A DNA stretch of 64,000 nucleotides, taken from positions 507,464-571,463 of the forward strand of contig NIVC01000326.1 in the NCBI GenBank assembly GCA_002269645.1, given 5' to 3'. Below, piece after piece: positions 45,301 to 64,000 of the stretch; within the stretch, counting starts at the first letter, position 1; each line of letters opens with the position of its first letter. The position numbers and the translations under genes are program-made. Below the pieces are notes generated by a model. The model was given only the letters and a program-made list of their open reading frames with translations. It made no database searches and had not been told where the DNA came from. Source of the DNA: Macrostomum lignano. Its lineage: Eukaryota.

Positions 45301-45643
45301 TTAGTGTTTTTGAGCCGTGTCCATCCCGTGAATTTGCTGCCCAATGCTCTGCCCAACGCGTGTCTCCATCGTTTGTATGTTTTTTAAACCGCTGTCCCGA
45401 GCCCTGCCTTTCCTCATACGGCTCGCTCTCTCTCTCTCCCTTGCCGTTCCGTTTACCTTTCCTCCTTTAGCAAATTGTTCGTTTAATAACCGAGTCGATC
45501 TATTTAGTTCATTGACTAGTTTATCGCTCTCCTAATTCAGCACCCCAGTGCCGCTCGCGAAGTCATCTTTGTTGTTTTATTTTATTCAGCGATTAGCCTG
45601 AGTAGACGGCATGAGGGGGCTTCTGGGACAAAATTTTTCACCT

Positions 45644-46756
45644 CCTCCATAATCCACCTAAATCCATCCATATTATCCCTGACAGAATCAGAAAAAAAGG
45701 GGGGTCGCACTCGCTAACAAAACGTCCTCCATAATCCACCTAAATCCATCCATATTATCCCTGACAGAATCAGAAAAAAAGGGGGGTCGCACTCGCTAAC
45801 AAAACGTCCTCCATAATCCACCTAAATCCATCCATATTATCCCTGACAGAATCATAAAAAAAGGGGGTTCGCACTCGCTAACAAAACGTCCTCCATAATC
45901 CACCTAAATCCATCCATATTATCCCTGACAGAATCAGAAAAAAAGGGGGGTCGCACTCGCTAACAAAACGTCCTCCATAATCCCATTAAATCCATCCATA
46001 TTATCCCTGACAGAATCAGAAAAAAGGGGGGTCGCACCTGCTCACAAAACATCGTCCATAATCCCATTAAATCCATCCATATTATCCCCGACAGAATAAA
46101 AAAAAAGGGGGTCGCACTCGCTCACAAAACATCCTCCATAATCCTATTAAATCCCTCCATATTATCCTTGACAGAATAAGAAAAAAAGGGGGGTCGCACC
46201 CGCTCACAAAACGTCCTCCATAATCCCATTAAATCTATCTATATTATCCCCGACAGAATCTTGAAAAAGGGGAGGGGTTGCACTTGATCCGAAAACTTTA
46301 ATCCCATTAAATCCATCCATATTATGACTGACAGAATATGGGAATATGGGTCCACTGACACCTGTTATGCTCACTGACACTGACATAATCCACTGACATC
46401 CACCCATAGCATCTTCGAAACAATCAGAAAAAAATATGCATTCTTCTCCCCACATTCAATTCGCAACATGAAACCAGATCCCTAAAACTTTAAACCCCCT
46501 AACCCAGGGTCCTTACCCTTTGAAAAAAAAATTAAATTTTCTCTAAAAATGTTTCCAGTTGTCTCTCCAGGTTCTTATTACAAAGCGCACGAGCCTAATT
46601 ACAAGAGTAAGTACCGATGCAAACTAGAATGCAGCGAGTACATGAGAAAATATTGGCCCGACGTTGATATCAATGTCCCTAATATTAATCTAGCTCTCCA
46701 AAGACACTGGTTTCATAAGTATGGAGTAACCTACGTAAAAGATTACGACAGCTACT
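45644..46756. repeat. Left TIR: about 8 copies of an 82-bp unit plus a roughly 450-bp non-array inner part
   Basis: Reverse complement of the 61928-onward region; inner boundary at GACAGCTACT. Confidence 0.93.
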
Positions 46757-46803
46757 GTGACGTAGCGAGTTCGAGATGTAGTCAGCGATTAATTAATTAT
46801 TAG
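46549..46803 (+). CDS. 84-aa hypothetical protein starting inside the left TIR
   Basis: AAAAATG start like other viral ORFs; a mirrored, frameshifted copy lies in the right TIR. Confidence 0.4.
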   Translation: MFPVVSPGSYYKAHEPNYKSKYRCKLECSEYMRKYWPDVDINVPNINLALQRHWFHKYGVTYVKDYDSYCDVASSRCSQRLINY

Positions 46804-47186
46804 TTGTTTATTTATTAGTTATTTATTTATTGGTTAGCTAGTTCAGTTATTAGTAGTGTTGACACGCATGGTACGAGACAAAATGCCGAGTTGAGGAGAG
46901 TACAAAAAACGAGCGCGAGGTAACAATTTAAATTGTCAAGATGTCTATCAAAAAAGTAATAACAACTTGGACTGAAATAAATAAAACTTCAAGTACATTT
47001 TTTTTCTAAATAAATTACATTGAATTAATAGCTGGGAAACCTGCAAATTAATCAACTACAATAATTTGAAGTAATAAAAACTCAGATAGAAACTAAAAAT
47101 TTAAGATGCTAACGACATCGTCACAGCTACTATAACTTTGCAGAAATAATTAGGCAATTGCGTTAGGCGTGTGAAAGTACTAACAT

Positions 47187-47575
47187 TTAAAAATGGCCCC
47201 ACTGGTAGCCATTCTAAGCGTTCTCATTGGTTGATAAGATTATACTAAAGAGAGAGTGGAAATGACTTGTTACTAAAAATAACTCAAGACAGATATTGCG
47301 ATCGTGTCAATTTAAAATTGGCTGGCCCCACTGGTAGCCATTCTAAGCGTTCTCATTGGTTGATAAGATTATACTAAAGAGAGAGTGGAAATGACTTGTT
47401 ACTAAAAATAACTCAAGACTGCTAATACGGTCGTATTTAAAATTGGCTGGCCCCACTGGTAGCCATTCTAAGCGTTCTCATTGGTTGATAAGATTATACT
47501 AAAGAGAGAGTGGAAATGACTTGTTACTAAAAATAACTCAAGACTGATATTGCGATCGTCTCAATTTAAAATTGG
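47187..47575. repeat. Three tandem copies of a 125-129-bp unit with ATTGG (CCAAT) boxes
   Basis: CCCCACTGGTAGCC at 47197, 47326 and 47451. Confidence 0.9.
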
Positions 47576-61011: not shown

Positions 61012-61037
61012 AAATATTTTTTTTGTGGGTGAAAAAA

Positions 61038-61900
61038 ATGGAAGCTATAGCCGAAAGACTAAACAACATTGTTTCACACTCAAGGAGAGCATTCCTATTA
61101 CAATAACTGGGCGAATTAATGACTCAAACGGATGTTTGTTGAAAAATTAGAGCAGGCGATTCGCCTGGATCCAGGTGCTAATTACCATGTCTATCTTAAC
61201 GACTTCACTGGTTGGTCAAACGTTCCCAATGTGACGGCAGCAAATAATAAGTTTTATTACAAATGGAAAGGTGCAGCAGCAGAACCTGTGGTATTCCCTG
61301 TGAGCACGCAAAGTGTGGATACCTACAATTACTTTCTAGAAAACGTCTTTACTAAAGAGGCCATTTTGAGACACCTGATATGAGTAAGCCAGAGAAGAAA
61401 CTGTTCCCTGTTAAACTAACCTATGATCTCACTGTAATGAGAGTGGTCATGCAAGTTCACAAAGATGCGGAGGTTGAGTTTAAAGATGACACTTGGTATA
61501 GGGAATGGGATTCGTGAAGAAAGTTTATAAGGCAGAATCCACAGCGCGGACTGTCACTCAAGCATCGGGGCCGTTAGCAATGGCCGGGAAAGTGTACGCG
61601 GTTTGTTCTTAGCACCCAATATAGCAGACATTGTAAAGGGTTTGAATATTCTAATCAGAACTAATCTCAGTCTTGATTGGGTATTTAAGGGAAAGCGAAC
61701 TAATATTTTGTACAACATCTCCAACTCTGTAGCTGGAGGACAGATGGTGGTAGAGAAACCAAATCCAGTGAAAAGAGTTGTATTGAGTAATAAGGAGATT
61801 CACGAGATTGTGCTACAGTTTGAGACTGAAGATGGGATGGGCGTTGATTTTAATGGGAAGAGTTTGTATTGACGTTGATCATTGAAGAATGTAAGAAATC
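61038..61900 (+). CDS. Minor capsid protein (penton-like), several frameshifts
   Basis: WSNVPNVTAANNKFYY; ILYNISNSVAGGQMVVEKP; IHEIVLQFETEDGMGVDFNG. Confidence 0.78.
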
Positions 61901-61927
61901 ACAATTGCTAATGATTTCTCAAAGTTA

Positions 61928-64000
61928 TAGTAGCTGTCGTAATCTTTTACGTAGGTTACTCCATACTTATGAAACCAGTCTTTGGAGAGCTAGATTAATA
62001 TTAGGGACATTGATATCAACGTCGGGCCAATATTTTCTCATGTACTCGCTGCATTCTAGTTTGCATCGGTACTTACTCTTGTAATTAGGCTCGTGCGCTT
62101 TGTAATAAGAACCTGGAGAGACAACTGGAAACATTTTTAGAGAAAATTTAATTTTTTTTAAAGGGTGAGGACCCTGCGCTGATGATTTAAAGTCTTAGGG
62201 ATCTGGTTTCGCACGTTGCGGATTGAATGTGGGGAGAAGAATGCAGATTATTTTCTGATTGTTTCGAAGATGCTATGGGTGGATGTCAGTGGATTATGTC
62301 AGTGTCAGTGAGCATAACAGGTGTCAGTGGACCCATATTCCATATTCTGTCAGTCATAATATGGATGGATTTAATGGATTATAAGTTTTCGGAGCAAGTG
62401 CACCCCTCCCCTTTTTCATGATTCTGTCGGGATAATATGGATGGATTTAATGGGATTATGGAGGACGTTTTGTGAGCGGGCGACCCCCTTTTTTTCTTTA
62501 TTCTGTCGGGATAATATGGATGGATTTAATGGGATTATGGAGGATGTTTTGTGAGCGAGTGCGACCCCCTTTTTTTTTATTCTGTCGGGGATAATATGGA
62601 TGGATTTAATGGGATTATGGACGATGTTTTGTGAGCAGGTGCGACCCCCCTTTTTTCTGATTCTGTCAGGGATAATATGGATGGATTTAATGGGATTATG
62701 GAGGACGTTTTGTTAGCGAGTGCGACCCCCCTTTTTTTCTGATTCTGTCAGGGATAATATGGATGGATTTAGGTGGATTATGGAGGACGTTTTGTTAGCG
62801 AGTGCGAACCCCTTTTTTTATGATTCTGTCAGGGATAATATGGATGGATTTAGGTGGATTATGGAGGACGTTTTGTAGCGAGTGCGACCCCCCCTTTTTT
62901 TCTGATTCTGTCAGGGATAATATGGATGGATTTAGGTGGATTATGGAGGACGTTTTGTTAGCGAGTGCGACCCCCCTTTTTTTCTGATTCTGTCAGGGAT
63001 AATATGGATGGATTTAGGTGGATTATGGAGGACGTTTTGTTAGCGAGTGCGACCCCCCTTTTTTTCTGATTCTGTCAGGGATAATATGGATGGATTTAGG
63101 TGGATTATGGAGGACGTTTTGTTAGCGAGTGCGACCCCCCTTTTTTTCTGATTCTGTCAGGGATAATATGGATGGATTTAGGTGGATTATGGAGGACGTT
63201 TTGTTAGCGAGTGCGACCCCCCTTTTTTTCTGATTCTGTCAGGGATAATATGGATGGATTTAGGTGGATTATGGAGGACGTTTTGTTAGGAGTGCGACCC
63301 CCCTTTTTTTCTGATTCTGTCAGGGATAATATGGATGGATTTAGGTGGATTATGGAGGACGTTTTGTTAGCGAGTGCGACCCCCTTTTTTTCTGATTCTG
63401 TCAGGGATAATATGGATGGATTTAGGTGGATTATGGAGGACGTTTTGTTAGCGAGTGCGACCCCCTTTTTTTTCTGATTCTGTCAGGGATAATATGGATG
63501 GATTTGGTGGATTATGGAGGACGTTTTGTTTAGCGAGTGCGAACCCCCTTTTTTTATGATTCTGTCAGGGATAATATGGATGGATTTAGGTGGATTATGG
63601 AGGACGTTTTGTTAGCGAGTGCGACCCCCCCTTTTTTTCTGATTCTGTCAGGGATAATATGGATGGATTTAGGTGGATTATGGAGGACGTTTTGTTAGCG
63701 AGTGCGACCCCCCTTTTTTTCTGATTCTGTCAGGGATAATATGGATGGATTTAGGTGGATTATGGAGGACGTTTGTTAGCGAGTGCGACCCCCTTTTTTT
63801 TGCTATTCTGTCAGGGATAATATGGATGGATTTAGGTGGTTTATGGAGGACGTTTTGTTAGCGAGTGCGACCCCCCTTTTTTTCTGATTCTGTCAGGGAT
63901 AATATGGATGGATTTAGGTGGATTATGGAGGACGTTTTGTTAGCGAGTGCGACCCCCCTTTTTTTCTGATTCTGTCAGGGATAATATGGATGGATTTAGG
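61928..64000. repeat. Right TIR with at least 20 copies of the 82-bp unit, truncated by the window
   Basis: Reverse complement of the left TIR. Confidence 0.93.

Follow-up and report, generated by a model that had tools for sequence, protein, structure and literature searches.

The 64,000-nucleotide stretch of Macrostomum lignano DNA analysed here (contig NIVC01000326.1, positions 507,464 to 571,463 of the forward strand; hereafter the window) ends in a Polinton/Maverick element of the adintovirus-like type, which starts at position 45601 and whose full insertion measures ~18.7 kb. Judging from the sequence, we think it rather probable that the insertion is very young and stems from a high-copy Polinton family, likely with protein-primed replication and a virus-particle stage, and that the frame breaks of the assembled copy are for the most part consensus errors. 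A preliminary description of the same DNA had proposed a near-complete adintovirus-like Polinton from 45601 onwards, and this is borne out by the ends, the terminal inverted repeats (TIRs), the integrase, the family B DNA polymerase of protein-primed type (pPolB, or PolB) and the capsid. Listing of open reading frames (ORFs), repeat finding and Pfam searches delimit a gene-dense, AT-richer block that runs from 45601 to the end of the window and is bounded by inverted repeats with an 82-bp minisatellite.

Ends, target site and age of the insertion

The left end lies exactly at 45601 (AGTAG...), and the termini of sibling copies, i.e. stretches around 20 of the 40 scored capsid matches, chosen for long contigs, align at the same position. 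The left TIR (45601..46756, plus strand, starting AGTAG) contains nine units of the 82-bp array at 45643-46337. The right TIR (61929..64000, minus strand) has its array from 62344, with 21 units in the window, and is cut by the end of the contig, which stops at 64000 inside this array. The element possesses the Polinton hallmark of TIRs with 5'-AG...CT-3' ends. A one-base variant of the terminus is common to both ends of this insertion and occurs only twice in the genome; its second place is contig G000:C2715, where the terminus lies ~300 bp further, adjoins an array of 23 units and, behind it, the element's right part, and is flanked by AGCCTG. The same hexamer precedes the element in the window (45595..45600, plus strand), and contig G000:C1081 represents the empty allele, with the left flank, one AGCCTG and the right flank (100% identity over 601 and 439 bp). 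Two checks suggested in the preliminary description, location of the right end and of a 6-bp target-site duplication, both succeeded, the former on C2715 and the latter with AGCCTG on both sides of the insertion and once at the empty allele.

Because the flanks are 100% identical to the empty allele over 1,040 bp, we conclude that the insertion is very young, younger than the local divergence of alleles: a few kb away, 24 substitutions within 4,101 bp separate the filled from the empty allele. The empty site is bridged by a short-read contig in two of the four runs examined, and contigs break near the site in three, a weak sign that both alleles are present in some samples. The empty allele also carries ~3.8 kb (G000:C1081 142427-146228) that are absent from the right-end contig, another local polymorphism.

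We considered whether C2715 might be the same copy assembled a second time and rejected this, as the hexamers flanking its two ends differ and another copy is matched over its left half; it is a chimera of two copies. Since C2715 is chimeric and 12 substitutions over 498 columns distinguish the inner TIR arms of the window insertion (~95% alike), the assembled interiors of copies may be mosaics. The "long TIRs" of the preliminary description hold for this insertion only: in siblings the TIRs measure ~0.7 kb and contain 2-4 array units, versus 9 and ~23 here. In the right arm a marker unit recurs ~9 units apart, which suggests a block duplication of the minisatellite.

Family size and sibling copies

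The terminal 20-mer of the element occurs 488 times in the genome (control: 0). A first look with the capsid DNA gave 349 candidates, of which 40 were scored and found to be 97-100% identical, and the 150 scored matches to the penton candidate range from 84 to 100% identity. Exact 6-bp target duplications, all different, flank nine of the 12 siblings with both ends, and the other three have none. A typical sibling measures ~16 kb; among the first 100 listed termini, 14 of the 27 paired ends span 14-17.5 kb, while five span less than 4 kb and correspond to short non-autonomous derivatives. This is a large and apparently active Polinton family.

Miniature non-autonomous derivatives, with paired termini 0.6-0.9 kb apart, were seen on G000:C124, C289 and C32, and G000:C1652 (30288-38167) carries two divergent capsid genes ~5 kb apart, which points to inversion or nesting. 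Another multi-copy Polinton family (L111-L140) has a ~455-aa capsid ~20% identical to the present one and the gene order pVI-like, pX, capsid, ATPase.

Capsid, purifying selection and a possible particle stage

The major capsid protein gene (59730..61000, plus strand; 428 aa in siblings) is present in two pieces, 59727-60374 and 60371-60964, with two frameshifts. Their respective database counterparts, 83% and 64% identical, carry PF21738 above cut-off. A model of the 83% identical homologue, based on an 87-sequence alignment, shows a double jelly roll with a predicted local distance difference test score (pLDDT) of 93, and a Foldseek search with it retrieved the capsids of PBCV-1, Sputnik and mavirus as well as MELD/adomavirus models, at 5-13% identity. 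The assignment of the window capsid as a double-jelly-roll major capsid protein is thus supported by way of its homologue's predicted structure. No relative turned up when viral and metagenome contigs were scanned for the capsid pattern, and PDB sequence searches were blank.

For variants common to at least two copies among the 20 siblings, the ratio of nonsynonymous to synonymous polymorphism (pN/pS) is 0.03 in the capsid (3 nonsynonymous, 26 synonymous; p 1e-15) and 0.08 in the ATPase, followed by the PolB core and the integrase (0.15 each), PLA2 (0.16), the hydrophobic ORF (0.24), pX (0.32) and the penton candidate (0.42). Overall, pN/pS is 0.18 for shared variants versus 0.30 for private ones. 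Judged from these variants, the capsid and the ATPase experience strong purifying selection. For fish Mavericks, purifying selection on morphogenesis genes has been taken as evidence of particle formation (PMC8097293; this and the other papers are cited from excerpts of their text), and a transposon confined to one nucleus would have no evident use for capsid genes. As hundreds of near-identical ends occur together with capsid genes under selection, the family likely still makes particles.

By analogy with what is known of Polintons and adenoviruses, the polymerase polyprotein would prime on the AGTAG ends of the excised linear DNA and the integrase would re-insert copies through a 6-bp staggered cut. 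The ATPase could pump the DNA into a capsid built from trimers of the double-jelly-roll protein and from pentons, maturation of the particle could fall to the protease, and PLA2 together with the hydrophobic proteins could breach membranes on entry. A terminal-protein/OTU/polymerase polyprotein is described as driving protein-primed replication from the ends (10.1101/2024.03.18.585575), and the roles considered here for the packaging ATPase, the maturation protease and the membrane-breaching PLA2/hydrophobic proteins follow PMC8502044.

It has to be considered that the elements spread solely as transposons inside cells, the capsid genes looking selected because the subfamilies diverged during a former infectious phase, with particles no longer being formed. 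Several points favour this and weigh against the particle stage suggested above: the analysis covered contigs, and no particle, free DNA end or confirmed transcript was seen; selection on shared variants may predate entry into this host, and private variants are less constrained; the short derivatives among the paired ends show movement without capsid genes; and Maverick particles had not been observed so far according to the excerpts of PMC8097293. Since the same locus was assembled more than once, the element counts overstate the haploid number. Nevertheless, in copies whose capsid genes are for the most part 97-99% identical, nearly all capsid variants are synonymous, and most scored capsid frames are open, so we regard spread by transposition only as improbable. 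Much more improbable, in our opinion, is that the elements are kept by the host to defend it, in the manner of virophages, against some larger DNA virus, or that it has domesticated them. The window insertion does lie among TRAF-like and ankyrin/Mab-21-like genes of immune type, and its capsid fold resembles that of virophages, but the insertions are scattered, polymorphic and young, the immune-gene neighbourhood is a single case, and the likeness of the fold (at the low identity given above) is general to all double-jelly-roll capsids.

Beyond a particle stage of the family, one may speculate that the laboratory-kept host currently sheds infectious Polinton particles that re-enter the germ line. 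We consider this possible but doubtful; if true, it would explain the hundreds of young polymorphic insertions, the selected capsid genes and the swapped subterminal cassettes, and it would provide a ready system for a first sight of animal Polinton virions. Particle formation by animal Polintons is a long-open question, and it should be observable in this host, since the family is unusually young and abundant, filled and empty alleles exist, and the capsid and packaging genes are under selection. Contigs from runs that are presumably RNA fall on TIRs as well as on genes and were not taken as a sign of expression, nor was summed contig depth taken as copy number or excess coverage.

Frame breaks: sequencing error or decay

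Compared with the 20 siblings, the window copy has 23 specific indel sites, 22 of them inside ORFs, comprising 20 one-base and three two-base deletions and no insertions, along with 18 specific substitutions. Thus, the earlier statement that the lesions are almost only single-base indels is accurate for the frame breaks, but not for the copy as a whole. Thirteen of the 23 indels fall within the core's final 4 kb, on the side of the contig end. The deletion direction of 23:0 has p ~0.003 versus an assumed natural deletion bias of 3:1, and isolated 1-2 nucleotide indels private to single siblings comprise 146 deletions versus 14 insertions. One-directional deletions are the pattern of a low-coverage long-read consensus. 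As all 23 indels are deletions of 1-2 nucleotides clustered toward the contig end, most frame breaks of the assembled copy are probably long-read consensus errors; real decay fits poorly with a brand-new insertion whose flanks match the empty allele.

Among the best capsid matches genome-wide, 93 of 96 are stop-free frames of at least 429 aa. In siblings, frames are open for the capsid in 15 of 18 cases, the penton candidate in 15/20, the protease in 9/18, the integrase in 6/12, PLA2 in 6/9, pX in 6/15 and the hydrophobic ORF in 3/10, and for each of the genes measured there are other places in the genome with an open frame. For PolB, 18 of the 38 loci scored genome-wide are stop-free over at least 1,150 aa, five of them at the identity level of the family, to which they are only presumed to belong. 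A programmed break in PolB throughout the family was rejected, the break points being scattered among 16 copies.

A number of observations run counter to an explanation by consensus errors. The enrichment at homopolymers is modest (13 of 23 indels at runs of at least three, background 37%), and three of the 23 window indels recur on the right-end contig C2715. PolB is broken in all 14 fetched sibling stretches, of the four siblings in which all eight core genes could be measured, none has every one of them open, and because siblings were chosen by capsid similarity, the share of open frames is inflated for capsid and penton. Some decay is real, because the private changes of siblings include 11 stop codons in addition to their higher pN/pS. 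One could propose that the window copy is truly defective, with deletions that arose during copying or after insertion, and that it was inserted by enzymes of other copies. The indels recurring on C2715 would agree with this, as would the same shortened protease frame in four of 18 siblings and the imperfect likeness of the inner TIR arms. However, in the window copy indels outnumber substitutions and all go in one direction, their density rises toward the contig end, and an insertion with flanks matching the empty allele has had no time for decay, hence we find a defective copy unlikely. While we prefer consensus errors as the cause of most breaks, the competence of this copy is left undecided, since the copy interiors look mosaic. 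Of the suggestion that the true copy may be competent, we therefore retain that the frameshifts are largely artefacts, and not the competence of this copy, in view of its mosaic interior and of the four siblings mentioned.

Gene content of the element

The gene order from left to right is: a variable cassette with an accessory ORF (minus strand), PLA2 (minus), integrase, pX-like, pPolB and protease (all plus), hydrophobic-hairpin, two coiled-coil, ATPase, pVI-like and Q/P-rich ORFs (all minus), and finally the major capsid and the probable penton (both plus). In Pfam searches with the window pieces, rve, DNA_pol_B_2, PLA2 (PF08398) and Adeno_PX scored above cut-off, and Peptidase_C5, Pox_A32 and Endonuclease_7 below it. 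The preliminary description had credited the element with a full virion gene set. Pfam, motifs and the fold of the capsid homologue substantiate the integrase, pPolB, protease, ATPase, PLA2, pX and double-jelly-roll capsid; the penton is likely, from its position, size and homologues, and the supposed membrane-active ORFs match no named family.

The integrase (49433..50470, plus strand; 345 aa, open) matches PF00665 (E-value 2e-8, above cut-off) and has candidate D, D and E residues. The pPolB gene (51058..54931, plus strand) comprises several frame pieces, the longest at 52106-54382, with five window-specific frameshifts, and includes an endonuclease VII-like insert. Its match to PF03175 is above cut-off but weak (62 bits over ~435 aa), and the catalytic motifs Exo I-III and Pol A-C are present. 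The best database relatives, named ones being from molluscs, insects, a spider and a coral, are ~41% identical and share the insert; in a tree of its own relatives, computed with no outgroup, the polymerase forms a long branch. An Asp-x-x-Cys-like stretch in the piece 51702-52037 may mark an N-terminal OTU-like domain; it gave no Pfam match.

The PLA2 protein of parvovirus type (48902..49402, minus strand; 166 aa, open; PF08398 E-value 2e-13) has no intron. No Rfam match to a group I intron was found in the window and 14 sibling stretches, and an insertion at the site was seen in none of 24 stretches. The pX-like core protein gene (50480..50900, plus strand; ~150 aa in siblings) matches PF05829 with E-value 2.5e-7 on the piece 50528-50863 and has one frameshift. 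The adenain-like cysteine protease (54965..55365, plus strand; 133 aa in siblings) is present in two pieces with His, Asp and Gln-Cys motifs (Peptidase_C5 E-value 0.004). The A32/FtsK-like packaging ATPase (57005..57803, minus strand), likewise in pieces, has Walker A, Walker B and motif C (Pox_A32 E-value 0.001), and a 21-bp tandem repeat lies upstream of its gene at 57841-58045.

The likely penton, or minor capsid protein (61038..61872, plus strand; 287 aa in siblings; five frameshifts), is predicted from its position and size. It has homologues in eight of the 41 related polintovirus contigs of at least 8 kb (E-values 1e-3 to 1e-8), but no Pfam or PDB sequence match, and its single-sequence fold reached a pLDDT of 34.

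The hydrophobic-hairpin protein (55369..56105, minus strand; ~238 aa in siblings; one frameshift), a candidate membrane-active accessory, has database homologues at 46-57% identity and homologues in four of the 41 related contigs. It is followed by two coiled-coil ORFs (56171..56991, minus strand), delineated from the ORF listing, the Pfam scan and sibling frames. The small protein at 58088..58600 (minus strand), in which helical stretches come after a G-x-G site, may resemble adenovirus pVI or 'Cupiennin'; its hydrophobic moment is not above that of shuffled sequences (118/300), and a similar ORF adjoins pX in the second Polinton family. The long Q/P-rich ORF (58491..59702, minus strand; ~390 aa in siblings) is in pieces and was delineated from the ORF listing and sibling frames. 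The hydrophobic and membrane-type ORFs gave no match to any named family in Pfam, PDB and Atlas look-ups.

The variable subterminal cassette, present in a minority of copies, contains three 125-bp tandem repeats (47194..47577) and the accessory ORF (47597..48298, minus strand; ~213 aa from Met, open), with a weak helix-turn-helix-like signal (PF21517 E-value 0.001, below cut-off). The latter has seven identical alleles and ~25% identical counterparts at either end of sibling copies; for it and the transmembrane ORF, Atlas look-ups gave unnamed or weak matches only. The cassettes (window 46757-48900 and sibling equivalents) are exchangeable, with at least three groups of accessory ORFs of 130-270 aa found at the left or right end depending on the copy. 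GGNCC sites are not avoided (20 versus 19.8 expected).

Genomic neighbourhood

The genes around the insertion are of animal type. A Gypsy-type long terminal repeat (LTR) retrotransposon at 38530-44843, with LTRs 99.7% identical over 344 bp and with its protease and reverse transcriptase set apart by a 24-bp tandem repeat, ends ~750 bp from the Polinton and is likewise missing from the empty allele. At window positions 5300-19900, TRAF-like genes (zf-TRAF, MATH) form a cluster that is broken by a long interspersed nuclear element, which has an open 936-aa reverse transcriptase/RNase H frame at 10676-13486. Dense and varied minisatellites (periods of 18-36 bp and multiples) occur in window 300-34600 around COG2-like and rRNA dimethylase exons. 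Beyond the right end (L081 1063-7536), a long ankyrin-repeat ORF adjoins a weak match to the Mab-21 C-terminal domain, a candidate cGAS-like receptor, and there is another MATH gene.

Comparison with known systems

The element shares with the animal Polintons/Mavericks described in the excerpts of PMC8097293 the pPolB, rve integrase, ATPase, protease, and major and probable minor capsid protein, as well as TIRs, AG-type ends, the 6-bp duplication and purifying selection on core genes. It differs from the vertebrate Polintons of that study in its gene order, which is not their two-module layout, and in copy number, which lies far above their median of 8; the maximum of 38 intact elements there compares with 93 open capsid frames here, these being capsid frames and not whole elements. 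The minisatellite inside the TIR is a feature of the window element. PLA2 appears in published Polinton maps (PMC3671162), and endogenous polintoviruses express capsid in corals (PMC11131425).

Like the Beta adintoviruses (PMC8502044), the element combines an apparently divergent pPolB that is weak on PF03175 with adenain, FtsK-like ATPase, hexon, a probable penton, and candidate hydrophobic and pVI-like accessory ORFs, although the GasderminX and Cupiennin candidates (55369-56105 and 58088-58600) match no named family. With its weak PF03175 score and its endonuclease VII-like insert, the polymerase looks Beta-like. Unlike Beta adintoviruses, the window element has PLA2, called typical of Alpha virion modules in the excerpts of PMC8502044, but the PLA2 ORF has no pX match and the pX domain is encoded by an ORF of its own on the opposite strand, so that it is not the PLA2X of Alpha adintoviruses (PLA2 with C-terminal pX). 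This polymerase type occurs with PLA2 in nine of the 41 related contigs, and with PLA2 and a transmembrane ORF in two; polymerase swapping is known (10.1101/2023.08.22.554363).

The suggestion that the host lineage and gene arrangement may be undescribed holds in part. The lineage, the gene order and the youth of the element are new as far as searched, and we found no paper on Macrostomum lignano Polintons in a literature search that covered sources other than Repbase and subscription journals; the gene content, however, recurs in other polintoviruses. The window-type capsid is 10-13% identical to adintovirus/MELD models in BFVD, while the database capsids P0121-P0127 are 51-83% identical major capsid proteins with PF21738, the next relatives falling below 30%. 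The IMG/VR polintovirus contigs L141, L143 and L144 differ from the window element in gene order and their identity to it is low, but all three share with it PolB (36-39% identical), PLA2, ATPase, penton homologue, capsid and protease, and L143 and L144 also the transmembrane ORF.

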